A DNA stretch of 64,000 bases from Schmidtea polychroa (lineage: Eukaryota): NCBI GenBank assembly GCA_044892525.1, contig CM097887.1, positions 10,912,001-10,976,000 on the forward strand, read 5' to 3'. How positions within the stretch are numbered: the first letter of the stretch is position 1; each line of letters starts with the position of its first letter. Made by a program: the position numbers and the translations under genes. The notes beneath the pieces were generated by a model. That model made no database searches. It saw only the letters and a list, made by a program, of their open reading frames with translations, and was not told where the DNA came from. Shown here one piece after another: positions 42,127 through 61,900 of this stretch.

Positions 42127-44647
42127 TTATATTGACAAATTATCGATCGGAACGAGGCAGAGCATCTCCTTATCGGACCCAGCAACAATCAATGATTCAC
42201 TGACATCGAGCGCTGTCACCGTGGAGGTCTGGTTACCGATTACGCTCTTCATTTGCAGCGATGACAAGCTCGAGTTGAAATCCCCCCAGTCAAACCCGAC
42301 ATCTGTACCGGAAATATTGATTAATCCTCCACAAGAGGAGGCAATGAAGAGATTTTGTGGATTTGTCGGATGGAATTTCACTTTCCAAACGTCGCTGGCC
42401 TCGAGGCCTGTGTTCAGCTGGACGGGGCCGCTCCTGTCAGTGCTGCGCAAATCCCAGATGCAAACGCATCCGTTACAGCCACTGGCAATTATATTCGGCT
42501 GTCCTGGATGCCGGGAGAGGCTGTGGATGCTCGTTAATTCACTGCCGTACCTAATTTGGATTCACGTTATTTGGTATTTATTAATAATCAATAAATAAAT
42601 ATAAAAAATTATGCGTCAATATATTAATATTTATTTGAAATTGCATCGATAAATTTATATATTTAAAATAAATAAAATTAAAAAAATATTTTAAAATAAT
42701 TTATTATAATTAAATGTAAATTAATATATTTAAAATAATTAAATTTAATAATCAACATATTTTTATTGTAAATTAATATAATTGCATCGATATTATCAAT
42801 TAATATATTTAATATTATGAATCAATAAATTTTAATTGAAAATTAATCAATAAATATATTTAAAATAATTAAAATTATATTTAAATTTATTAATTATTAA
42901 ATTGTTATTGTAAATTAATATATTTAGAATTGCATCGATTAATTTATATATTTAAATTAATCAATTACAAATAAAATTTATTCAATATATTTTAATTGTA
43001 AATTAATATAATTGCATCGATAAATTAATTTAAATATTATCAATTAATATATTTAATATTATGAATCAATAAATTTTAATTGAAAATTAATCAATAAATA
43101 TATTTAAAATAAATAAATTTAAAATATTTAAATTTATTAATTAATAAATTGTTATTGTAAATTAATATAGTTAAAATAAATAAAATTAATTCAATTTTAT
43201 TCAATATATTTAAATTGTAAATTAATATAATTGCATCGATAAATTAATTTAAATATTATCAATTAAAATATTTTTTATTATGAATCAATAAATTTTAATT
43301 GAAAATTAATCAATAAATATATTTAAAAAAATTAAAATATTTAAATTTATTATTAATAAATTGTTATTGTAAATTAATATATTTAGAATTGCATCGATAA
43401 ATTAATTTAAATATTATCAATTTAAAATAAATAAAATTAATTCAATTTTATTCAATATATTTAAAATGTAAATTAATATAATTGCATCGATAAATTAATT
43501 TAAATTTTATCAATTAATATATTTAAAATAATTAAAATTAAAATATTTAAATCGATAAAGAAAACCGATAACCCTTACATTACCACTGAATCACTGGCCT
43601 GATACTGTTATATAAAATATTATAATATAAATTTGTTAAAGGGGCCCCCTGGTTATCTTTGGCCCCCCCCCTTATAATATATGAATATTGCATATAAATA
43701 ATATAAAAAGGGCATTCAATCAATGGAGGAATCTCACAAATATTGAAAGGAAATATAATAATAACCCTAGTGGAGCAATTAAGCCCCTTTGTTACCCTTC
43801 CCCCCCTTTGTTATCATTGATAATATTGACCAATCAAATATAATATTAACAAGCAAAATAGATAATGAAAGAGTAGAAATACAAATTCATATAAATGTTA
43901 CATTATTGCAAATTAATTATTAATTAATTAATTAAATTTAAATAAATCATGAAAAAGTAATCTCACCTCAAATAACTCCACTGGGGCGTTTTGATACGCA
44001 TTCTATTATCCCATAATTTCACTTGGCCGAATGCATTTGCCGTCAGGAATGTGTGGCGATCAATTCTTTCAATTGCGTTGATTGCAGTAGCATCTTGCAC
44101 GCGGAAATCAAAAACTGCATTAGGGTCATTAACTTCTAGGCGATTAAATGCAAATTAATTAATTAATCAATTAGATATTGATTTAATACTTTTATCTAAT
44201 CTAATTGACAGCATAGTACCATCTGTTGATACGGCAATAATTCTCTCATCGGCAAACAATGAACCTGTTATTGGTCCAGAGCATACTTTATCCCAACCGA
44301 CATCTAATTCTAATTTCCCACCGTCGTCTGAATTAACATTATAAATGTTTAAGGAGCCATTAGAGCTTGATGTTAAAATTCGATCGTGAATTTGATTGAA
44401 CTGTATATCCATGACATCACCATCATGGGCAATTGTTGATAAACAAATTGGTTCAGTAATATCACCACCGTATTCCATTATAGATATTGAGTTTGCCTTA
44501 AAAACAATTGTTAAAAATCAAATTAAGATACTGTATTACTGGTTCGAAGCATGTTCCAACTGCAAAATATGCTTCTGTATCTAGAGGTTCAGATATGAAT
44601 TTGATACAAGAAATTTGCGAACAAAATGGTTTGAAAGTTAATTCCAT
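42127..44647 (-). CDS. NUP43: Nucleoporin Nup43 (WD40), 335 aa; exons 44647-44540, 44496-44190, 44135-43967, 42550-42127
   Basis: HDGDVMDIQF, TANAFGQVKLWD, SRHPGQPNIIASG, VWKVKFHPTNPQNLF, TALDV...LIVAGSD match Nup43; GT-AG introns of 43, 54 and 1416 bp keep the frame (1008 nt). Confidence 0.9.
42600..43560. repeat. AT-rich imperfect tandem repeat in NUP43 intron 3
   Basis: Recurring aattgcatcgataaattaatttaaatattatcaatt blocks. Confidence 0.8.
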
Positions 44648-45567: not shown

Positions 45568-48500
45568 TGTTGGGCTGAGTCGAAAATTTAATCGTTGAAA
45601 AATAGGAAAGTAGGGAAGTAGAACATTAAGAAAAATAATAATAAAATAAATAAAATCAGAAATAAAATAGAATAAGATATAAGGAAAATAATAAGTAAGA
45701 CATAAGAATTAAAACAAAAAATAAAATTAAGAAAAGATTAAAATAGAACAAGTTGACAAATAAATAAAGAGGAATTCAAGAAATAATAAGGAAATTAAGG
45801 AAATAAATAGAAAAACATATTAAAAATAAAGAAAATAAGGAAAAAACAACCTAAAAACAAGAAAATTATATTAAATTAATAGAAATAAGCGGTACTCAAC
45901 TCTGATTGGTCCGCACAAATAAGAATTTGATATATATACAACTACCAAAAACATTAAATTTACTGTTAACCCCGAGCATTTCATAGGTAAGAAAAATGTT
46001 TACTGTTGTTTACGGTTAACCCCGAGCATTTCATAGACATCTACAACTCACGGAGACTTATTTCAAGGATCAGCAATACAAGTAGAGCAACAGTTAATTC
46101 GAAAAACTTCACAGCAATTCGAAATCAGTCACAGCAATCGACATTCAACGAACCATCATCAGACTAATTTGGAACGACTAACGTTAATTTTCCGATTCAG
46201 CCTAATTCCATAGTAAGGGATTTTTATTTATGATATTGTTTTTCGAAGTTAATAGTAAATATGTATATTTAATGAGCAATTAAACTTTTAAATTTAACCA
46301 GACTCTCTTTTCATTTGGTCCTGAATAACGATTTTGATAAAGTAAATAATTTAAATGTTTAAAAGTATTTATTGGTAACAGGTGAACTCTTACATAATTT
46401 TTATGGATATTTATTTTGAAGTGATAGTTTCATGATTTCTAATATTAACGAGAAACGTGGCGTTGAGATACTCCATGTCATGGTGTGAGGTGCCTTCGGG
46501 AGCTCAGCCGGTGGACATGGAGTATTTCAATCACGCAGCTAGATTGGGCCGAAATGTGAAGGCTTCTTCACGGGTCCAATTGCTGAAGGACTTAAAATCT
46601 GTCAGAGTACCGAAATATAGACCGAAAGGAAACCTTCTGAAAGTTTCGAAAATAGGATATGTGCTTCACAGCGACTGAGGGAGTTCTCATATTAACTCTG
46701 TATTGTCCAGAGTCGTCTTACAAGACATTCATGCCACTTCTGTCTATAAATCCGAACTTACCATGTGGGGGAAAATACCATTAAACATCCATCGCTGGTT
46801 TTCTAACATATCGAGAAGTTGAAATTGCATTCGGTAGATTTTTGAAAAAGTAACTCTAATTTAGGTCATCTCTTTCAGATGCGACATCCAAATCTTAGCA
46901 TATGATGAGGAATTTACAATAAAGGAAAAGTAAAACATAAAACCACAATAATACTGTATTCAATCACATATATTAACAAAATCTGGTAATACCCATTGAA
47001 TAATTTTCATGCTGTTGCGTCGAAATATCCACTACTGAAATATGCTTCATAGAGTCTAGTTGGCTGGTTCGTAGAGATCTCCCATCGTTCAAAAGCATCC
47101 AATATTGAGGAAATTACGAGTCGTAGTAAATAAATCCGACATCATAAGCTCAGATGGGAATCGACACGCGATGTAACATTTGCAGTTCGCTCAGTACGGT
47201 TGATAGTTACAGATAAAATTTCCATCGAATAGGCACCCATACATACAGACATACTGCTAACATAACTATGAGTAGCGTCATCCGGTCAGAAATATGCATG
47301 AGAAACAGCAGAATCATTCCGAGTGCCTCTCACCGCAGGGAATGCCGCCATGTGTCACCCTCTCTAGGATTCTTAGTGTGTGAGTAGTAATCAGTGGTCC
47401 TATTAGATAATGCTGACATGAGATGTGACTTCCAGATGACTGACTCTTAAATTTCACTACTGATAAAGGCCATTCGTACCACTAAAAAGATAAGCCAAAT
47501 AACCAGTAACCGACTACTAAGATAAGGGACTCTCTAAAGTGCACCCATTAAAGATAATTTTGCTTAAATTAAATATGCTAAATAAAAATCGAAATTGTTG
47601 AAGGGGTATTTTAATTAATAATCGAAAATTCAAACCAAACTTTATAACTAAACCATAGGAAGTTTTACCTAAGTGTTGTAGAGGTTTATCGTAATTCTAA
47701 TTAGATGTTACAAATAATAGTAGTAGCCTTCGAGCCAAATTTAAATTAACTAAAGTATCTACAGGAATTTTTGGGTTATAAAATAGCTAGTAATATTGTA
47801 GTTAAATTTCTCATATTCCCTGTAAATGACGTATTGTAATAGAAAACTAAATCCGATAACAAATTATTATGTAATTACAATATTTTTACGATGCTATATT
47901 TCTACGACGATATCACCGTATGGTATGGATAAGGGGTAATCATAAAATAGTGACGTATAGTTTATACGAAATTACGAGTTGTTACTTATTCCGCTACTTG
48001 AGGTAAGGGTGCAAGTTTTTACTAGTTGCATTTGGTCCAAAAACCTTATTTTGCATTAGAATAACAACAAATAATCAGCGAAATTTAAACGAAGTGTAGT
48101 ATAGTGTATTTGTAATGAAATAGGGTTATTCGCTCCGGCATGAATAAATCCGTAAATTGCCTTTATGTGCGATAGATAGAAATCCAACTCGAACGCGATA
48201 GACGAAAATTAAAATTTTTACAAATAATTTGCATTCGTCAGGGAAGCAATCAGGGCGTTGGGGAATAATTTTCTGTAAAGGATACGTAAAATATTAGTAA
48301 TCAAGGGTGAAGGGAGGGATCCTGTTTCATCGACTCGTCTTGTTTTCTTCCAGCACTAAGTATCCAATAGCGAATAAACCGTATATCTGATCCGAAATTT
48401 TTGGATATAGTCATCATAGTTTTCTTCTTTAGCCATCCATATGTTATCAAACCACAAATCAGCTCTACGTCCCTGCTTCTCCTGCTCAGATAAAAATGCA

Positions 48501-49727
48501 GTGATTAAAGATCTTCAAGCCCAGATCGGTCGATATAAACGAAAAATCGACGAACTGGAAGGGACATGGTTTAGTCCCGCTCGGATGAAGGAGATCCAAA
48601 AGAAGCTCGATCGTAGCGAGCATTGCCGGGACGCGCTAATATCTGAGAGCCGTGCCCAAAGAAGTCTAATCAGAGAACAATCCGAGGCACTGCATAAGGT
48701 TTACGTGCAGGCGGCTACAACCCGAAAAATAGTGCAGATTCCCATCCGAGAGGCCGATGACATCTTTCCGCCTCATCACAACCTTTCCTCGAATCCATCT
48801 CCACCGTTCAAGAGACCGTGCCAAGACTGCGTCGAAAACGAATTGTCCCCCAAGCGACCAGATGTTGTCGTCACGGGTACCAGTAAGCCCCCCACTGCTA
48901 GTCCATCTGTATCAGTCACCCCTCTGCAAGTGGCATCTTCAAGCAAACCCAAGCGCAAACAACTCTCTCGTGCAGAGCGCAAGAAGAGACAGCGCGAACG
49001 CGCCACTACCAAGCCAAACATCCCATCAATAGAGGACTCAACCAACGGTGGCAACTCTCACGTGTCCATCGACCTAACAACGGGACCCTCAGCACGAATC
49101 ATATCAGCCGCTGGCGTAACGTGGGAAGAGAACGCTTCCGAGTTTTTTAACCTCGACGAATTATTCGCCGACGCTGAATGGGAGAAACAATAGAACCCCA
49201 GTGGCGGTCAGGACGAAGAACAAGGATCCGATCTATGTTGATTATGATGTTTTCTCTTCTTTCGACAAACATTAGTAAAGTGTACAGCTGAATCCTTGTG
49301 TCATAACGTTGAAATTAATAAATCTTGTTGTCTTACACGTTTTCGTTCATGAATAATTAGACTTTAATTAAGTGGGTTGAGTAGAGAACCCGCCAGATCT
49401 AGTGAGAAATTCCCAATTTGTATTCAGCGAATCCTGATAAGTGGTTGTGTAAGGAAAAGGACGTAAGCCCTTCTAACGGCAGTCGTGAATGGGAAGTCGA
49501 GGCCTCAGCAAGGAGTAGTTTTAAGGCAGAAGCTCACCTGCTTGCTGGCGTCTCGCCTGCATAGTGCAGTACCAACGTGAAGTGATTCACGGGCACTATG
49601 TTGGAAGAAAGTTATGTGGGGTTTCACTCCAGGTTGACAAATCGGTGGCACCTTTTATTCGAGATGGACAATCAACCCTTAGACCCGTCAACATGGTAGA
49701 GTGGTCAGCCGAGGTGTAACCCCAACA
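45568..49727 (+). repeat. Candidate 5' LTR, 4160 bp
   Basis: Starts TGTTGGG and ends CCCAACA (perfect 7-bp inverted termini, TG..CA); PBS 7 nt downstream; AATAAA at 49317-49322; partner LTR not in window. Confidence 0.7.
48441..49193 (+). CDS. LTR-encoded protein of unknown function (250 aa; CxxC, coiled coil, basic patch, acidic/aromatic tail)
   Basis: Intact ORF with higher GC than its flanks; preceded by TTTCTTCTTTAG (48421-48432), followed by AATAAA. Confidence 0.65.
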   Translation: MLSNHKSALRPCFSCSDKNAVIKDLQAQIGRYKRKIDELEGTWFSPARMKEIQKKLDRSEHCRDALISESRAQRSLIREQSEALHKVYVQAATTRKIVQIPIREADDIFPPHHNLSSNPSPPFKRPCQDCVENELSPKRPDVVVTGTSKPPTASPSVSVTPLQVASSSKPKRKQLSRAERKKRQRERATTKPNIPSIEDSTNGGNSHVSIDLTTGPSARIISAAGVTWEENASEFFNLDELFADAEWEKQ

Positions 49728-49734
49728 TGATTTT

Positions 49735-49752
49735 TGGGGGCTCAGCCGGGAT
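49735..49752 (+). promoter_or_regulatory. Primer-binding site, tRNA-Pro
   Basis: TGGGGGCTCAGCCGGGAT, 16/18 to the classical tRNA-Pro PBS TGGGGGCTCGTCCGGGAT. Confidence 0.85.
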
Positions 49753-50065
49753 CTACAATCGATCGAAATTTCTATTAACGAATGCGAAATTCACCGGGAT
49801 TTTCATAAAAAATTAAAGGGATTTATCACATCGATTTTCTGTTTTCGACCGACCATTGCTTGACGAATGCCAATTAACTATTGATTATTAAATTATATTA
49901 GGAACTAAGTAGAGAAAATCAAAATGTAGATAATAGAAAAATTAAGGATATAAATAAAGGAGATAAAGTAGTCAAATTAAATAATTAACAATGGTTAAAG
50001 AAACCAATTAACGAATTAACTATTAATTTACTACATATTATTAAAACATTACTTTTCCAACAGCT

Positions 50066-50551
50066 ATGACAGAATTCGCGAACCAAATGCAACAACTGCT
50101 CAAGTGGATCGATATAGAAAACGACTCCCTAACAACACTGACGCATAAAAGAGAAAAAATCAACGCGATATTACTGCAAGCAATCGGACAAACACCAGTC
50201 GTACCTAATCATATGATATTAGCCACAGGCCTAAGTCGCCCAGATGGAAAAATAAACCCCGAAACCGTATATCAGTGGTATCAAGAGAGATTGAACCACC
50301 CAACATTAAATCTAGATTATCAGCGTCTAAAAGACTCACTAAATACAATACCAGATGCAATCGAACAAAAAATACAGGAAAAAGTTAACCAATTACGAAC
50401 TTGTATAGCCTGCAAACTCCGTCCTATTCGCGTATTATTCTTGCCGTGTGGACACCTCAGTCACTGTGAAGAGTGTGTAAAAGACCTAAAAAGATGCACG
50501 ATGTGCAAATATGAAATAAAAGAGACCCATATGGTCTATTATGGCGAATGA
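50066..50551 (+). CDS. RING-finger protein (IAP/MDM-type C3HC4_3 RING at the C-terminus), 161 aa
   Basis: CIACKLRPIRVLFLPCGHLSHCEECVKDLKRCTMCKYEI; acceptor-like TTTTCCAACAG just before the ATG; AATAAA at 50656-50661. Confidence 0.85.
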   Translation: MTEFANQMQQLLKWIDIENDSLTTLTHKREKINAILLQAIGQTPVVPNHMILATGLSRPDGKINPETVYQWYQERLNHPTLNLDYQRLKDSLNTIPDAIEQKIQEKVNQLRTCIACKLRPIRVLFLPCGHLSHCEECVKDLKRCTMCKYEIKETHMVYYGE

Positions 50552-51129
50552 AACGGCCGGCGATGTAACAGCAAGTATACGATGTTTGAACAAGAATGCA
50601 TGAAATTGTTGAGGTAACACGTACTGTTAATGATTCAATCTTTATGTTTATGATAAATAAATTCGTCTTTAAAAAGTTTTGATGATTAGGACTAATAAAA
50701 TTTGCATGACGAATGAATATTTGCGTGTTTGTTTTGTTTTATTTTTTTTTCGGAATCAAATGAAGAGAGGGTTGAATAACGTGGAATTAGTCCCAATATA
50801 GACTGCAGGGGTACAAACCGAGCCACCTTCGGGCGGTACGTCTTATTGTAAGAACCCGTTGGGAGGGGATAACTGATCAACCCAAGTAAGAAGCGTAGGG
50901 CGGGGTACCATCGCATATGATGAGAAGTTTTTGCGACATGACTGATCACCATGCAAATGTAGAAATGGATCATCGCGATCGTCGTGCGTTTTGAGCAAGG
51001 GGGGAAAGGGGAAACACTCCCAAGCGGTAAAGATTAAGTCGACAAATTAAAAGTAGATAGAGAAAATGGTAAACTAGAGTAAAAGAAGAAAAGAGAAATA
51101 GAAGCATGCAGAGCGAGGAATATTAAAGC

Positions 51130-51719
51130 CGAGCTGTCGAATAATCCAGCCGGTCAAGGAGGAAGATTGAGCTGTTGAATAGTGCCAGCCAGTCGTAAGG
51201 TCGAGTTGTGAAAAAGTCCAACCGATCAGGAAGGAGGAAGATTGAGCTGTTGAATAGTGCCAGCCAGTCGTAAGGTCGAGTTGTGAAAAAGTCCAACCGA
51301 TCAGGAAGGAGGAAGATTGAGCTGTTGAATAGTGCCAGCCAGTCGTAAGGTCGAGTTGTGAAAAAGTCCAACCGATCAGGAAGGAGGAAGATTGAGCTGT
51401 TGAATAGTGCCAGCCAGTCGTAAGGTCGAGTTGTGAAAAGTCCAACCGATCAGGAAGGAGGAAGATTGAGCTGTTGAATAGTGCCAGCCAGTCGTAAGGT
51501 CGAGTTGTGAAAAGTCCAACCGATCAGGAAGGAGGAAGACTGAGCTGTTGAATAGTGCCAGCCAGTCGTAAGGTCGAGTTGTGAAAAGTCCAACCGATCA
51601 GGAAGGAGGAAGATTGAGCTGTTGAATAGTGCCAGCCAGTCGTAAGATTGAGTTGTTGAATAGTCCAACCGATCAGAAGGAAGAAGATTGAGCTGTTGAA
51701 TAGTGCCAGCCAGTCGTAA
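51130..51719. repeat. 74/75-bp tandem array, 8 copies plus a degenerate lead-in, in the element leader
   Basis: gagctgttgaatagtgccagccagtcgtaa recurs at about 51170, 51245, 51320, 51394, 51468, 51542, 51616 and 51690. Confidence 0.95.
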
Positions 51720-52975
51720 AGGCCTAGAAAAGCGAGAGATAGCAGTTAAGCTACAATGAGATAATATTTAAATTACTAGTGATATGGAATATTAAAGCTA
51801 GCTAGAACAAATTGAATGTAATTTTGAAAATTCGAGTTTAGAGAGGAAATAAACGAGCTCGTGGAAAAGAAAATAGGATTATAATGAAAAAGGAAAGGGA
51901 AGAAGGAAACGAATTAAAGAGATAATAGAAAATAAAGAATAGATGAAACGATGATAATGAGTAAAGAGGAAAGTAACTAACTAACTAAAGGGATCCCAGT
52001 GAAGTAGAGAAACTCTACGGAATATTTTTTTTGGTTAAACCGGGAAAATGCATTTTATTGGTTCCAGAGTAGAACCGAGCGTAATAATAATGAATATGAA
52101 AAGTAAAATAGCGACAACAGCGCAAAAGGATTAGGAAAATGAAAGGGGGGTAATAAGCAGAGACCGACAACGACCTATTTTTACTATAATTGATAACGAA
52201 TAGATAATTATTACGACTTTATAGATAATTGTTACTACCCCATATAGATAATTTAAAATCGACGGAAAATACGGGCTGATGGGATATTATAACCCGCAGA
52301 AAGGATTTCACAAAAGATAGGGGAAGCACAAACAGAAACCTAAAAGGTGTCTGTTTTTGAACGTTGTAGAAAGAATGATGAAGTCGTGTAAGCAAATGCA
52401 ACACGAGATCATTTTTTCATTTTAGATATCAAGCCAATCCAGCCAACCAAGACAATCCAGAACCTGCACAAAAGGAATTCGAAGAAATCGACAATCAACC
52501 AAGGATAAATCCATTCAGAACCCGCACCGAGAGACACAGCAACCGGAAGACTCCCGAACGGAAGAAGTATTAGCAGCCATCTGCCAAGGATTAGAAACAC
52601 AATCAGAACCGAACGCGACCAATTCAATAGCCGCTAATTACCAAGAAGCGTAAGAAAGGAATCACGGATAAACCCAATCTTAGATCTTCAAGTAAGCCAG
52701 GAGACGTATTATTTTCAGGAGACGAATTACAACAACTCAAAAGAGGACGATCCATTAAACATCAAAGAGGAATATCACAAGGATCCAGAAGAACCAATCA
52801 AGTACCCATATTTGACCAAGAAAATCTCGGATATACCCCTAGTCGATCTCGAAGTAGAGAAAGTCTGTCCGATATCACTAATAGTTTAGCAACGTCAACC
52901 GAAGAATTATCAGCCCAAAGTTTAGTCACATCGTTAGACAATTTAAAAGAAACAGACGAACCTAGAACACCAATC

Positions 52976-55900
52976 ATGACGAATGTCGTAAAAACCGACG
53001 AGTATAAAGAGAAGTTCAGAGGAGAACCGTTCAACGGAAATGCAAACAAGCTAGCAACGTTCATAACTAATTTTGAAGTTTATATCACTGTGTGTGGATG
53101 GACACCCGAAGCAATTAGTAAAAGGATGCCGTTGTTTTTGTGCGATAGTGCATTAGAGGTATATTTAGAAGCTAAAGAGAGAGACACGAAATTAGAAAAG
53201 TGGGAAGATATTAAAACATTCCTGAAGAAAACCTTCGGAGCCAGTAAGCCAATCAACCAGGCGTTGGGCGAACTAGCAAATAGGAAACAAAGAGCAAACG
53301 AATCGATAACATTATATGCCAGTGAATTGCGGAGATTAGCGAAGAAAGCAATGAATGGAAAATTACCCGAAGAAAATCTGATCGGTTATTTCATAGAGGG
53401 ATTACGCCGAGAAGAAGTAAGAGCCTCAGTAGGTTGTCAAATGTGCAAAACATTAGAGGAAGCCATAGATTGGGCTACAAGATGCGAGCTCCACCTTCCA
53501 GCTCAAATGAATATTATGCAAGAGGAGGGAAGGATAGCGACAGCAATAGCGAAAGCGGATAACGGAGATAACAACAATCAAGAACCGAAAATGAATCAAT
53601 TTATACCAGGAGCGCACCAAATTTTCAAACCACCACAAGGACGATCAAACGGGAATAATGGTAATCGTAACAACCCGAATAATGAGAACAATTTCAATAA
53701 TCGGCGAAATATGAACGATAACAAGCAGTGCCGAACATGCGGTAAACCAGGACACTGGGACAGAGATTGTTATAGAAATTCAAATTGTAATCGTTGCGGA
53801 CGGCGTGGACATACCGAAAATGTATGCCAATTGCGAGGCTGTTTTAACTGTGGTCAGCCAGGTCACATCTCCAGAGATTGCCGAGAAAGGGGCCAACAAC
53901 AACGACCACCACAGCGAAATAATAATTGTATAGCGAATCCGCAACGACAAAGTAACCCTAACGAAGGAAAACAAATGAACGTTATGCAGGAAATTTCGCA
54001 GATGAAACAGATGATGCAACAAATGATGAGACCAAGACAAGAATCAGCACCACAACAAACCCAGAATATACGTATGATGAGGAGTACCGAAAATCTCAAC
54101 AATTATGAAGTGCATCAACATGTACAAGAATGGCAAAGGCTACAGGCCGAGGAAGAGAGGATAAAACAAGAACGCAACCAACAACGACAAGAACAACCAT
54201 TGCGAATAAATATGATGAAGTTAGTAAAAGACATGAAGAGCCAGTATTGCTACAATTACGGGAAAAGCCCAAGGGTAGTACCCACGACTGAACCAGAAAA
54301 GGTAAAAGAAATAACAACGGAAATGGAAACAGAGAATTCAACCACGATTTTAAAAGGAAACCAGAGAATTCAGAAAATATTCTGGAAAAAGATAAAGGAT
54401 AAAATCGAAAAAGAACATAATAAAGCGAAAACCGAGACAGAAGATGAAAATAACAAGAGCAAGGAACAAACCAGTCAACTAAACCACCAAATGCTACAAG
54501 AATCAGAATCAGAAGAAACAACAATATTCGAAAGAAAGAAACTAAAGAGAGTACCAAGGATGAGAAACTTGCAAATCAATATGATGAAAAGGACAAAAGA
54601 TGTAGCATCGTCAGACGAAGAAGAAGATTATGTAAGTAGTTTGGGTGGAGAAATACTACAGCCGAATGAAATAAGCGAACCCCCAAAAGGGGAAATCAAA
54701 GAGGAAGAAAGCGGAAACGAGATAACCAGTGAAAGTGAAAACGAAGATATCGAAATAAAGTTGAGAAAAGCAAGGGAGGAAGCGATAAAACAGGTAGCCG
54801 AAATACTCCCAGTAGTAGTGAGAAACCAAGAGTTCATCGACGTAATACCATTCAGGCGATTCGTGCAAAAAGTGATGAAATTGGAAAGAAACGAGAAAGA
54901 TCTAATACCAAACGAGGAAAAATCAATTATAAAAAATTATATGGAAAAAATGAAGCAGGCCGATACCACGCGGTATGTAATAAAAATTGGAACGAGTAGA
55001 GGACTTGAAAGAATGTGGATAAAAAATACAGTCACCGACGAACTTTTCGATTGGATACGAGAGCATTTGGGAAGTTCGAGAAAGAAAGAATATCTGTATC
55101 AATACCAAGGAGAACAGATCAAACCAGATATGCACTTAGTAGATGCACTAATATGGCCAGGAGAAACGCAAATACTGAAGTTGCATAAAGAAAAACAACC
55201 AGCCAACCTTTACGATTGGGCTAAAGATGCCAAGGCAGAATATGATTTTAATATCAAATTGAAATTAGAACAAATAAAACAATGTACTCTGAGACGAAAC
55301 CTGGATAAGCTGATCAAACAAATTCAAGAACAAGTAGAAGACAACTGGGATTTACTCATCACCAGACGAGCCCCAGCCATGTACGAACTAATGAGCCGGT
55401 TGCGAGATACAGAAATGCTCCGAATGAGTGATTGGAGAACCATAAATTTGATCCACAAATATGGAAGGTTAAAAGAAACCCAGCCACAGAGGTTAGAAAT
55501 AACCATATGGTTACCGAACGAAGAAAAACGACGAATAAAAATGAGCAATCAGAGTACAGTAGATGACTTGGTATCAAAAATAAACCAAGAGATAACGGAA
55601 AAGGTACGTAGCGAAAGTAGTGATGGTATGGTGGATGATGTAGTCATGATGTACGATAAGATAATATTACGAGCGGAGGACGACACCTCGTTAAGCGAAA
55701 TGGGTATGTGGGACAATCACCAGATAATCAGGATAGTACCAATGGATGAATTTCGAACAAGAGATGTAACCTATCAAAAAGAAATACGAGACCGGATGAA
55801 AACGTTATATCAAAAATCTACGGAAATAATTAAAATCCACCAACAATGGTTAAAAGAAAAAGAACTACAAGGAAAAATCACGAAATTAAGCACCAGATCC

Positions 55901-58900
55901 TGCAGACGAACCCCATGGGAAAGAGTGTGGAATGCAGAAAGTAAGGAATGGGAAATCCGGAAAGGAACCTTCGTGGAAACAGACATTGGTGAGACAGAAA
56001 GTGAATCGGAGGAAGAAGAAGAGGAACCTCCAAAATATGAAGAGGAAGCAAGGGAACAGACATCAGATGACGAAGGCGAGACGGATGTCACATCAGAAAG
56101 CGAAAATGAAGCGAGACATATTCATGCAATGAGGAAAAAGGAACGTGAATATGCTGATATGGACGGCGAGGAAGCGACGGAAGCAAGAGAACGAGAAGAG
56201 AAAGAAAGATATAAACAATTAGGCGATATCTTAGCAATGGGAGCGAAAAATCAAAAACGCCAAGTAGTAGCGTTGGCTAACATCATCTTAAAGACATCAG
56301 AGAATATCCACAATCTGAGAGGAATGGCAAAGGCAATAGAGGAATACCGGCAATATAATGAATGGTATCCAGAACAGCTAGAACAAATTATTCGAAAATG
56401 GAGAAATCAGGAATGGGCACAAGACACCCAGGAGAGGTATCACATCCGAATCAAGTATCCGGACAAGAGCATCGAGGAACTAGAGGTGCATCCAACAACA
56501 AAAATTAGAGAATTAAAAAAGAAATTAGCATATGAAACTCCATTCCATCTGCAACTGTTCGGAAAATCACTAGACGATAATGCAGACGTCGGGATAACAC
56601 CCATGAGATTGGAAGAGACAAATGTATTAACAATGGCAGAAACGTTGGGAAAACCGTTAAAAAGGAAAAGTAAAATTATTAAACCAACAAAAGGCAGTTT
56701 GAGTACTCCAAGTCCGAACAAAGCACCAAGTAAATCTAATGAAACTGAAGAAGTTGAAGAGATAATCCTGGAAGATAGTGACGATGAACCAGGAGAAAGA
56801 TCACCGCTATTAGTGAGATGGCCGACAGGAGCCGAAATGTGGACTAATAACCAGCCATCAACGAGTTATCAACAACCAACGAAACTGAACATCAAAGAAA
56901 TCATCGACAATACTACGGAAACCGAAACGGATGAACAATTCCAGAAGCAAAGAGAACCAACGAAAGTAACACCAGAAAGTCAAACCGACAAAATAATAGA
57001 CGAATGGAATGAGTGGCTAAGAAATAACGATAGCTCATTACCCAGAACGGATAACGAAAGAAATCCGAATTACGAAAATACCAGAGAAGCCGGAACGATG
57101 ATGGAAAAACGGGCAAAAGGAAGACCGAAGAAACAAGGAGAAAAGTCTGAGTTCAAAACCAAAGAACAATTAAAGCAAGAACAAGGGCAAGTTCGATTAG
57201 AAAAATTGGATAAAATAGTATGGGATCTAAAGGAAGCCCAACCAACGATCGAAAGAGGAGAAAAATGGATACGAGAATTGTTAAAAGATATGTTAATAAT
57301 AACAAACCCACAACTTAGACGTTTGTGGCAACGGAAAGTAGCCAGTACGGAAGCTAGACAATTATGGCACACCATTTCGGGGATAATCCCAAAGTTAATC
57401 AAAGAGAAAACGAAAACCACCAAAACGGATTGGGACGAAACAAAGAAAGTGATTGAGCAGCTCACGACAAATGCAAACGATGACGAACATCACCTAGTGG
57501 TAATCACGTATTTGATGTATAATTTGATGGGACTAGCTGCGAGGAAAATACCAAATAAACAATTTGCAAATCATGTGGAAATGACCGTTTCAATCATAGA
57601 GAATACTATTGAACCACATATTATTCGTGCCGGAGGATGGAAAAGACTGATACAAGCGCCACGGAAAAATGAGCAAGAAAGGTCGATGCAAGTTAGATTG
57701 AAAAAACTGTTAAATGAACTAGAATGGGAACTACCGATGAAAGATCCCGCAAGCAGAAAAGCATCAATAAATTCGTTAATGATGACTATGATGATATGGA
57801 TGTTGTGCACAAGTGGAGCAACGGGTTTCACCATCTACGATTGTGATAACATGATAATGAGAGATAAATACTCATTGAGAGACATAGAAGAATGCAGACA
57901 AGCCTCACCCAACAAATTGGACATCGTGAGAACAAAAGTTACTTACCATGTATATCAAGAATCAGACTTCATCAGAACGCAAGCAAGGGAATGCGTAGTA
58001 TCAAAAAAGGTACTCGCATATTACTGTGGACAATATTCGTATTCGACTCTTATACTACCCGGTCTGGATAAAGAAATCGTATCAATACAACGAGAGGATT
58101 GTAAAGAGCTATTTAGAACCGGAGCGCTAAAAATGCATAACGGAGTGACAATTCACGGACAAACTGGAATGATTAAAACCGAAAGTGTTTACGTATCCGG
58201 AAAAGTAAAATCATCAGATGGGTCATGTAACGGGGGGACGTATACGATCCGAGGCGAGGTAATATCGGGAGTTGTAGTGATCGAGTCTTACACGGTCGAA
58301 TTAAAAGAATACGAAGCGCAATTTGACGCAAATAATTACCAAATGAAGACCAACCCAGCGTGTAAAGCTACAGAAAACGTATGCAGGACAGGAGTATCAA
58401 CTATAATCTATGAAGCTAATACCCAAAAATGCCGACTCCAACTGTTAAAAAGTGCTTTGTTCAATGAAGTAAAAGGAGAAATATATGAGAACGAGAACGA
58501 CGAGGATGGAAACGACAGAGTGAGAATGCGAAATGGAAAACCAATGCCACCATCTCCCAGAGAAAAGAGACTTTCAACGCAGAAGACACCAACAGCATTA
58601 ATCACAGACGATCCAGATCTAGGTATGAGATTTATCAAAGAGAAAGAAACCACCAAATGTGACAGTATAGTATATAAAACCAATTACGCAGGTATCTACA
58701 TGTCGAGACAAATAATCGATAGAGCAGTGGGAAAGATAGCAACGGAGGACGTAAAACTATACTTATATGCAAATAATAAAATGGATTTTCTATTTCATCG
58801 TGGACAAACGACCTTGCAAAAAGTATATTACGATCTGATACAAAACGATTGTTCATTGAATAAAGAAATATTGAAAACAAAGCTAGCTATTGCGATAACG

Positions 58901-61900
58901 CACCCCGATAACACGATGCCATCACTCCCATTACCAGATGGACACTTTGGTAGAATGGTAGGAGAAGTGATGTACACATACCAGTGTACCAAGACGTATG
59001 CACGAATGCCAGAAAAATCCATACTACCCGAAAAGAGATGTGCAAATGAATTAGAAATTCGTTATAAAGGACAAAATCGATTCGTCCAACCAGTCACTAG
59101 AATTATGAATCCAGTGGGTTTCTACCCAAATCTCTTTAACTGTTCTAATGCATACGGACCTTTGTATGAAAGACCCGATGGGAAATGGATGATGTTACCG
59201 GGAAAAACCATATCCGAGGAACCCAAGAAATTTGGATTAATAGAACTCGCCACAGAGCTGGATTTCAAACCTATAGACGTGTCAAACGGTGGTATGTATT
59301 CCCCAGAAGATCTAGAAACAGCACGACTTAACGTACTCTTCCCAGCCAGACGAGAATCCATTTTGTCTAATATGGTCACAATAACTGGGGGCACAAACTA
59401 TCAATCAGGCCCGAATTACGAGCTGCTATTATCGCCAGACCATTTTCAACAAGCTACGTCAAACATGATGAAAGCAATGTGGGGAAGATTCTTAGTTTTT
59501 GGACAAATGATGGCCGGGATATTAGGGATCATACTCATAATTCAGATAGTCAGAGTAATACTAACACAAATGTTAGCTTGTTTCGATATATACAAGCGGG
59601 AAAAGAAAGTTAATTGGAAAATGATAGTAGGTTTCTTACCATTTTTAGCTAAGACCATGGTATTACATGGCCACTCAAAAGACATCCATCGGATAAAGCG
59701 ATTGATAAAAATATTAACAAAGATTAAAGGAACCGACGAAGAAGTAGGCAGACGATTCCGGAAAGTAATGTACGATGAAGCAACAAGACGACAATTGAAA
59801 AAGAATAAGCCAAAATTCTTGGACCGATTTAGAAGCCAATCATCTAACAGCGATAGTGACGACGATGATAACGGGAACGATAAATGTCTTTATCCAAACA
59901 GAAACCCAAACGAAAAACCAATGGAAACGGCACCATATTGGGAAAAGGAAAAGACAAACACCTGGATCGCCAATGGAAGCTATATACCACCGGATATCGT
60001 GGGACCACAAACAGCTTTGACCATGACACAAAATATGTATCCGCAATTACCGAGTCAACCCGGTATGCATTATATGCCAACACGACGTACCAAAAGTGTA
60101 GATCAAGCAGATGACGTAAGAACAATAGCAGCGATGAGTTTACCTGGAGGTCCAGCAGTGACAGTCATGATCCAAATCAATGGTAAAGAAACCAATGCTA
60201 TGATAGACACAGGAGCTAATGTATCGGCGATAGCGATTAATCAAATTCCCAGTAAACACTGGAAAGATATCGAATCAACAACAATTCACATCATAGCATG
60301 TAGTAAAGAAACAGTGGACGTGGTCGGAAGATGGTGGACTACATTGAGATACCAGGACAACGAAATTGAAACGTATTTGGCAGTAATACCAAAACTTAGC
60401 GTACCATGCATAATCGGAACGGATTTGATGCCAGAATTGTTAAAAGAAGTCGTAATTGACTTAACAACCATGTGTTTAAAAGACAAAACCGGTAGAATAT
60501 GCAAAATGAATGCAGTCATCAGATGTCCAGAAAAAATAATAGTACCAGCAAAATCGCAGATGATTTGTCAGATAAAAGTGGATACGGGTATGGAAGGAGA
60601 AGTTATCTTTGAACCAAGCAAGTCATTCGAAAAGCGACGAGAATTACCACTCGCAAGAGAAATAATCACAATAAACCAAGAAGGAGTGATACCGCTCAAC
60701 ATCACGAATTTCGAAGAGGAAGACAAAATCATTTATGAGAACGAAAAATTGGGAAGATTGACCCCAATGATGGACATAGAATTACCGAAAGTGACCAACG
60801 AGATGATCAAAGATGATGAATTATGGACAATGGATAGTATGTTGTTGACGAATGATGAAAAGAAAAAATTGCACCGATTGTTGGTAGAATATAAAGATAT
60901 ATTCGCCATCTCAGACTTAGACTTGGGTACATGCGATGTTACCCTACATGCAATACCCCTCATAGATGAAACTCCAATTGCATTAAGACCATACAAGCTA
61001 GCAGAAATGCAAAAAGAAATAGCCGAAGCAGAAGTACAAAAGATGCTAGACGCAAAAGTAATCGAACCAAGTTGCTCACCCTGGCAATTCCCAGTGGTCA
61101 TGGTAAAAAAGAAAGATGGCACCCAACGATTCTGTATCGATTATCGGAAGTTAAACGCAGTGACCAAGAGAGATACCTATCCATTGCCGGACATCAATGA
61201 GATGTTATTGATGTTGCAAGGGGCAGCATATTTTACTTCTCTAGATCTAAAAAGTGGATACTGGCAGATTAAAGTCAAAGATGAGGACAAAGAGAAAACA
61301 GCTTTCACGTTGGGACGAGATCTATATCAATTCAGGAAAATGCCATTTGGACTGACTAACGCACCAGCATCATTTCAACGGTGTATGAACTTTGTCACCC
61401 ATGGAATCAAACAATGTATGGTATATATTGATGATTTACTAATCTATTCAGCGACATTTGAACAACATCTAGAAGATATCCGAAACGTATTTATTAGATT
61501 AAGACAGTGGAAACTCAAACTCAAACCATCAAAATGCGATTGGGCAAAGGAAAAAGTCACGTTTTTAGGACACATAGTGTCAGCTAAAGGAAAGGAGCCA
61601 GATCCAAGAAACATTGAGAAAATAAAAACATGTCCAGCACCGAAAACTGTCACCCAAGTTCAGGAATTTCTAGGATTATGCGGATACTATCGCAAATTTA
61701 TCAAAAATTATGCAGGAATTGCAAAACCAATCCAGGAACTAGTAAAGAAGGACATTTCGTTCTTATGGGGGAAGGAACAACAAGAGGCGTTTGAAACGCT
61801 GAGAGACAAACTAATCGAAGCACCTATCCTCGTACACCCAGATTTTAAGAAGCCATTTCTATTGGCAACGGATGCAAGCGGGTACGCGGCAGGCGCGATT

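Follow-up and report, generated by a model that had tools for sequence, protein, structure and literature searches.

The window analysed here, that is, the whole stretch of 64,000 nucleotides from Schmidtea polychroa, contains an LTR element of 30.45 kb, which runs from 45568 to 76021 in extended coordinates (the window plus 29 kb of the neighbouring contig) and shows a 4-bp target-site duplication, GTAA. Since its two LTRs are identical, the insertion is taken to be very young. The features of the element considered in this work are the following:

45568..49727, + strand: 5' LTR, 4160 bp, TG...CA
45960..46220, + strand: candidate leader exons, with putative GTAAG-type donors at about 45987 and 46213
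48441..49193, + strand: LTR-internal ORF, with a coiled-coil start and a basic low-complexity end
49735..49752, + strand: PBS, pairing with the 3' end of tRNA-Pro(TGG) as encoded in this genome
50046..50063, + strand: pyrimidine tract and CAG acceptor-like site (CAG at 50061-50063, 2 nt before the ATG)
50066..50551, + strand: RING gene ORF, 161 aa, its frame open from 50045
50066..50395, + strand: N-terminal domain, residues 1-110, five predicted helices, the last, long one entering the RING
50396..50551, + strand: C3HC4 RING of the IAP/IDOL/MDM2 class, C-terminal tail and stop
50656..50661, + strand: AATAAA, candidate internal polyadenylation signal (a second one at 50694-50699)
51156..51730, + strand: about 8 tandem repeats of 74-75 nt each, separating the RING gene from gag
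52631..64000, + strand: polyprotein open frame, 4732 aa stop to stop, ending 2.8 kb past the window
G000:C3:10983862-10988021: 3' LTR, beyond the window, letter-for-letter identical to the 5' LTR

The element belongs to the known Burro class (Burro/GYPSM1 type), as it exceeds 30 kb, has long LTRs, encodes a single polyprotein and carries env between gag and pol. The Pfam families found along the polyprotein are, in order, gag, CCHC, a mononegavirus-type fusion glycoprotein (env), PR, RT, RH, IN and ankyrin. The same arrangement has been described for Burro/GYPSM1 of Schmidtea mediterranea, which is also longer than 30 kb, with long LTRs, a gag-Bcl2-env-PR-RT-RH-IN-ankyrin polyprotein, MATH/TRAF and accessory ORFs (available text of PMC6431247). 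It had been suggested from the letters of the window that Ubl and Bcl-2-like domains accompany the RING gene. In the polyprotein, Bcl-2 is matched only weakly (E 0.032, which misses the cut-off), and Pfam yields nothing ubiquitin-like at E<=0.1; for Burro, both domains have been described on the basis of HHpred or previous work (PMC6431247, same text).

Beyond the window, the polyprotein is followed by a full TRAF gene (RING-ZnF-coiled-coil-MATH) and then by coiled-coil genes. In this TRAF gene (G000:C3:10979435-10980823, L031) the RING has Cys-Arg instead of the usual His, in 12 of the 12 copies printed, and Burro TRAF copies may inflate planarian TRAF gene counts. In the 3' accessory region of these elements, the TRAF, IAP and coiled-coil genes (L031, L206-L216, L106-L107, L110-L111) often have a YAG directly 5' of the ATG and an AATAAA beyond the stop, a layout that resembles the serial, separately processed genes of a virus or an operon. 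The LTR-internal ORF at 48441-49193 also has an acceptor-like TTTAG shortly 5' of its ATG and AATAAA 3' of its stop, and a similar-looking ORF occupies the same place in a sister lineage. The window's element contains no BIR gene, which sets its lineage apart from the BIR-bearing Burro sister and from Burro1/GYPSM1; no IAP gene was found in it or in the related 3' regions (12 fetched, 11 with TRAF).

The IAP-type RING gene predicted between PBS and gag is found exactly at 50066-50551. Its ORF starts 331 nt from the start of the PBS (49735), and the first in-frame gag ATG, at 52976, lies about 2.9 kb beyond it. The protein matches Pfam zf-C3HC4_3, the family proposed for checking it, with 43.2 bits against a cut-off of 27 (E 3.4e-11, residues 111-153), and all eight zinc ligands are in place (C113, C116, C128, H130, C134, C137, C144 and C147), the last Cys of the RING being followed by 14 residues before the stop. 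In a PDB sequence search, the best matches were the RINGs of cIAP2 (E 2.4e-10) and cIAP1 (5.3e-10), followed by BIRC7, XIAP, CGRRF1 and IDOL. Together with the Pfam score, these cIAP matches bear out the XIAP/cIAP/MDM-type spacing that had been read from the sequence. The C3HC4 ligands with IAP spacing, the C-terminal position of the RING, the aromatic residue in the tail and the preceding helix are those of dimeric RINGs of the IAP/IDOL/MDM2 class. The tail aromatic, Tyr158, aligns to cIAP1 Phe616; it is invariant (22/22 aligned, 41/41 copies) and has 2-3 residues after it, as in cIAP1.

As had been stated, the protein has no BIR domain: PF00653 gave no match at E<=1, either in it or in 14 N-terminal variants. 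The 161-aa ORF, as read from the genomic ATG, thus lacks the domain that defines the IAP (BIRC) family, a genomic reading to be taken together with the acceptor directly 5' of the ATG, which bears on a possible upstream coding exon. Judging from the models described below, "IAP-type" designates here a structural class and not a demonstrated origin, as IDOL/MYLIP fits equally well.

The N-terminal 110 aa, expected to be helical, are modelled by AlphaFold2 as a five-helix bundle, confident in 4/5 models, and the helix preceding the RING spans residues 79-110. For the full-length protein, the best of five models reaches a pLDDT of 91 and the other four 57-72. The model RING with its preceding helix superposes on IDOL with Z 8.9 and an rmsd of 1.2 Å over 63 residues, in agreement with Foldseek; BIRC7 is on a par with IDOL/MYLIP (Z 8.8), and the cIAP RINGs also match. 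A homodimer prediction, run without alignment, scored 0.01, which tells neither for nor against a dimer. For residues 1-110, no Pfam family came near its cut-off, the PDB sequence search gave nothing below E 0.28, and Foldseek with the N-terminal model gave no match at E<=0.001. The best fold-comparison result for this model (VIA) has a Z of 5.3, with spectrin-like repeats and generic helical bundles; none of the matches listed is a UBA, BIR or CARD, which does not amount to excluding these domains.

The protein therefore combines a familiar module with an unfamiliar one. Zinc spacing, pre-RING helix, tail length and aromatic are shared with cIAP1/2, XIAP, BIRC7 and IDOL/MYLIP (rmsd about 1 Å over about 60 residues); unlike in these proteins, no BIR, CARD or FERM was detected, and the helical N-terminus is unrelated to theirs. 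The same RING class has been captured by large DNA viruses (baculo-, irido-, entomopox- and giant viruses), with many BFVD matches at E 5e-5 to 1e-3, but their TM-scores over the query (0.27-0.38) are consistent with a RING-only fit, and none of them shows a common N-terminal domain.

The acceptor-like site and the AATAAA attributed to the gene are both present and kept. The ATG is preceded, at a distance of 0-2 nt, by an AG in 70/70 selected copies and in 35/35 unselected intact copies. In the window lineage, AG stands at -4 in 41/41 sequences (the window and 40 divergent copies), with no AG from -21 to -5, and the tract before it is 81% pyrimidine, versus 35% further upstream. AATAAA falls at +98..128 after the stop in 37/41 copies, versus 0.07 per copy in shuffles, the interval having been picked after inspection and the copies being related. 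Between the likely LTR start and the RING ORF there are 61 ATGs, which makes ribosome scanning of the genomic RNA implausible, and donor-like sites are present in the LTR. From these signals, we infer that the RING gene may be expressed from a separate, subgenomic spliced mRNA. Trans-splicing, which occurs in flatworms, would be an alternative route to this message. Among the joints listed for assembled contigs of four runs that are not on record as RNA, no GT-AG junction falls at the acceptor, and one contig is unspliced across it, a result that bears neither way on splicing.

A genome search with the RING protein returned 3594 candidates, of which the 150 scored were the top-scoring and hence are biased to intact copies; all are full-length, with 71-100% identity, and 144/150 have no internal stop. 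The leader RING ORF of the sister lineage is free of stops in 150/150 scored copies. A sample not selected for the RING was taken through the PBS, which has 1058 exact matches in the genome, and comprises 60 of the first 63 sites listed on C1 (three tandem duplicates were skipped). The RING ORF is intact at 35 of these sites, frameshifted at 6 and absent from 19. Wherever gag was matched within 4.2 kb (33 elements), the ORF is intact; among the 27 gag-less elements, 25 have it in decayed form or not at all. The six frameshifted copies have no gag, and TG replaces AG upstream in 6/6. These copies (L161, L170, L181, L183, L191 and L192) look like a sister-type subfamily in which the RING ORF, without acceptor AG, was already broken before amplification, the frameshifts being common to the four copies translated.

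Three lineages (11, 16 and 8 copies) can be told apart among the 35 intact unselected ORFs; in an almost gapless alignment, the window protein is about 26% and 40% identical to those of the other two. Pairwise dN/dS over the window and 40 copies picked for divergence is 0.114 for the whole ORF, 0.116 for the N-terminus and 0.076 for the RING (753 of 820 pairs with dS>0.1, mean dS about 0.95, pairs not independent), and 0.175 within each of the two other lineages. The eight zinc ligands are complete in 67/70 copies. Conservation across copies had been named beforehand as a check, and it points in one direction: the RING gene is a real, long-kept, selected accessory gene of Burro-type elements. 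A recent passenger insertion is rejected by the intact ORFs of gag-bearing elements, loss of zinc ligands by their completeness, and a pseudogene by purifying selection (dN/dS about 0.11) together with intact ORFs.

The RING gene does not follow gag in its history. Over 36 copies and 630 pairs, RING dS and gag dS are uncorrelated (Spearman 0.015); 21 pairs combine gag dS <0.05 with RING dS >0.5, and 8 pairs RING dS <0.05 with gag dS >0.3, in a set picked for RING divergence, whose frequencies are not a population estimate. Thus, L061 and the window have gag dN 0 and dS 0.047 and RING dN 0.149 and dS 1.25, and their LTR ends are only about 80% alike, over part of the length. It appears that recombination moves the LTR end, the leader and the RING gene as one block. 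Between the window's element and the BIR-bearing sister, identity is 90% for RT, 59% for env, 47% for gag, 35% for the Bcl-2-like region and 26% for the leader RING; the high RT value against those of gag, env and RING (window polyprotein versus L108-L111) makes a pol exchange between lineages possible.

In cIAP1, the RING dimerises via helix, RING and tail, with Phe616 contacting ubiquitin in trans; Val573 touches the E2, and Arg606 is the linchpin (PMC6349121, in the part available). When these positions are transferred by sequence alignment to cIAP1/2, at about 30% identity, the Burro RING turns out to have diverged from the cIAP-class ligases at Val573, at the CPxC proline and at the linchpin. 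The proline is absent in 35/35 unselected intact copies, from the three lineages, which carry at the linchpin Arg (1), Lys (10), Asp (16) or Val/Thr/Ala (8). In the 41 copies of the window lineage, the linchpin is Arg in 5 and Lys in 34, and the Val573 position is Ala/Ser in 40. The two other lineages have no linchpin Arg (0/24), Asp being seen in the Burro1-like one, and mostly keep Ile at the Val573 position. A hydrophobic residue is kept at the position of cIAP1 Ile604. For comparison, Pro and Arg are retained in 6/6 other planarian RING exons and in 2/2 rows of the Burro IAP (B-IAP, see below), and only 6/34 public comparison RINGs are without both. The E2~Ub-activating residues of the cIAP1 type (Val573 core, linchpin Arg606) are therefore not those of the Burro RING, a result that leaves activity possible. 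Concerning the "E3-ligase-like" character first proposed, the RING class and the zinc ligands stand, and the claim is weakened by the erosion of these residues in all three lineages. Roughly half of the RINGs in human and yeast carry a residue other than Arg at the linchpin, and certain E2s do not depend on this position (available portion of PMC7667886), so erosion does not show inactivity.

The eroded E2 face, together with parallels in MDMX and viral IAPs, favours a reading as partner or pseudo-ligase, to which we give slightly less than an even chance: the RING protein would dimerise with ubiquitin ligases of the IAP class, much as MDMX does with MDM2, would be no efficient ligase by itself, and would have its own spliced, internally polyadenylated mRNA. 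MDMX has an intact RING and tail, Lys at the linchpin and changed first-loop residues, and works only in the heterodimer (PMC6465955, as far as its available text goes). The Burro RING resembles it in RING, tail, Lys linchpin and first loop; there is no homology beyond the RING class, the Burro zinc pattern is C3HC4, and the likeness serves as a working model. An acidic linchpin left Hrd1/Doa10 with almost no E3 activity with Ubc7 (PMC7667886, in part), and viral IAPs reportedly bind host IAPs and thereby stabilise them (PMC4966970, in the accessible text).

According to the partner model, a leader exon in the LTR would be spliced to the AG before the RING ATG, and the transcript would terminate at the AATAAA that precedes gag. 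Dimerisation would involve the pre-RING helix, the RING and the tail, as their conserved features suggest. In the heterodimer, the partner RING would bind E2~ubiquitin and the Burro RING protein would lend its tail tyrosine in trans, changing the stability or activity of the partner ligase, while the helical N-terminal bundle may bring in a target. As the window lineage encodes no IAP of its own, the partner there would have to be a host RING. The canonical binding of cIAP to TRAF2 was rejected as a model, as it uses BIR1 (PMC3972657, available part). Several data argue against a partner role, namely the Arg present in 5/41 window-lineage copies, the Ile mostly found at the Val573 position in the other lineages, the stronger constraint on the RING than on the N-terminus, which also fits a working ligase, and the single full-length model of five that reaches a pLDDT of 91. 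A role in cell death, for which the RING protein, without BIR, provides no direct support, is plausible by neighbourhood only.

Viral RING accessory ligases mark host factors for degradation, and by analogy the protein could be a self-sufficient homodimeric E3, whose bundle would bind a host restriction or silencing factor and whose RING, with a linchpin-tolerant E2, would mark that factor for degradation. This has an appreciable probability, below even and not far behind that of the partner role. The complete zinc ligands and invariant tail tyrosine, the hydrophobic residue at the Ile604 position and the low RING dN/dS fit it well, and a separate conserved N-terminal domain suits substrate binding. 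Moreover, some non-Arg linchpins of human and yeast RINGs are functional (PMC7667886), and BURRO1 is under PIWI control (PMC8532177, both as partial texts). However, Pro and Arg have been lost together in three lineages, with Asp at the linchpin in the Burro1-like one, and the N-terminus, under purifying selection on average, offers no obvious arms-race signal in pairwise dN/dS.

The relation to the element-borne IAP of the sister lineage has to be considered separately. The BIR search returned mostly a gene of 392-393 aa, downstream of TRAF in that lineage, encoding BIR and RING, and this 393-aa gene is most likely the B-IAP of Burro1, for which a protective effect on planarian stem cells has been reported (Lee et al. 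2026; PMC13465017, partial text). Two sister-lineage copies carry a leader RING gene (160 aa) as well as the BIR-RING IAP, and the leader RING gene, present in lineages with and without B-IAP, is distinct from it. Both are element-borne IAP-class RINGs, B-IAP with a proposed link to host cell survival (PMC13465017, same text); B-IAP joins BIR and RING, lies 3' after TRAF and keeps Pro and Arg, whereas the leader RING lies 5' of gag, is BIR-less and has an eroded E2 face.

Taking into account that residues 73-153 are locally similar to the C-terminus of the sister IAP (31%), and that the window lineage has no 3' IAP, it could be supposed that the leader RING arose from the element's own B-IAP by duplication and truncation, as a UBA-RING remnant with the same anti-apoptotic job. 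In a tree over 63 RING columns, the leader RINGs form one weak branch (68/85), and B-IAP groups apart from them with three other planarian RING exons (97/86); a joint clade of leader RINGs and B-IAP is not rejected by the AU test (p 0.114). Three BIR and one non-BIR proteins were dropped from this tree for RING pattern mismatch, and its six "host" rows are RING exons and not demonstrated IAP genes. The best tree, the presence of both genes in sister-lineage elements, and an N-terminus without BIR by Pfam, whose best fold matches are generic helical bundles, make the duplicate very improbable. The phylogeny against host RINGs, recommended at the outset, thus brings the leader RINGs weakly together and singles out no donor. 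The only relatives that public protein searches found with strong similarity over the full length are of the sister lineage (P0001, P0151), the other matches being mainly RING-only, with BIR proteins accounting for 25 of the 38 scanned. Quite unlikely, too, is that the RING acts as a zinc-stabilised scaffold in the life cycle of the element itself (assembling particles, regulating the polyprotein or TRAF) and leaves host ligases unaffected: the eroded catalytic face and the retention of the RING in gag-bearing but not in most gag-less elements suit it, whereas free reshuffling against gag argues against tight co-evolution with Gag, and the IAP-type tail is kept exactly.

Returning to the partner role, a bolder version of it can be formulated, which we hold to be rather unlikely as a whole. 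The Burro pseudo-ligase would heterodimerise with host IAP-type ligases and retarget or stabilise them via its new helical domain, would be swapped as an LTR-plus-RING cassette, and would belong to a set of accessory genes organised as in a complex virus, each equipped with an acceptor and a polyA signal. If so, Burro would carry a retrotransposon-borne, MDMX-like regulator, which could complement B-IAP or replace it in lineages without it.

Publications already cover the Burro class and connect it with apoptosis and ubiquitin; the BIR-less RING gene between PBS and gag is apparently new, prior annotation being possible. For Burro, the available text of PMC6431247 names BIR, MATH, AIR1, Bcl-2 and Ubl motifs, and mentions no RING gene standing by itself between PBS and gag. 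The ORF was not found described in the literature searched on Burro and on RING ORFs in LTR elements, where Grohme 2018, Lee 2026, Byers 2015 and Jurka 2007 may annotate it. The leader RING is more widely kept than B-IAP, being found in all gag-bearing elements sampled, including lineages without B-IAP, and a small gene with three natural lineage variants is amenable to in vitro tests and RNAi. Should the protein tune host IAP-class ligases, this would be a further mechanism through which a retroelement controls ubiquitin signalling in its host; should it be an active ligase, nature would here provide an example of catalysis that dispenses with the canonical proline and the linchpin arginine.

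Some further observations concern the PBS and the surroundings of the element. The usual gap between LTR and PBS is 0-3 nt; here, the PBS begins 7 nt after the terminal CA of the LTR (49728-49734), a spacing repeated in related copies. The tRNA-Pro(TGG) genes form a long tandem array with a 475-bp period, from G000:C1:130901009 onward (L219), and their pattern has 1580 matches in the genome. At 19/60 PBS sites (L148, L155, L157 and 16 more of L146-L205) there is a family with a different LTR end, variable internal sequence and neither gag nor RING within 4.2 kb, which probably consists of non-autonomous elements mobilised by Burro. Finally, exons of a host WD40 gene are found at 42127-44517 on the opposite strand (-), about 1 kb to the left of the 5' LTR.
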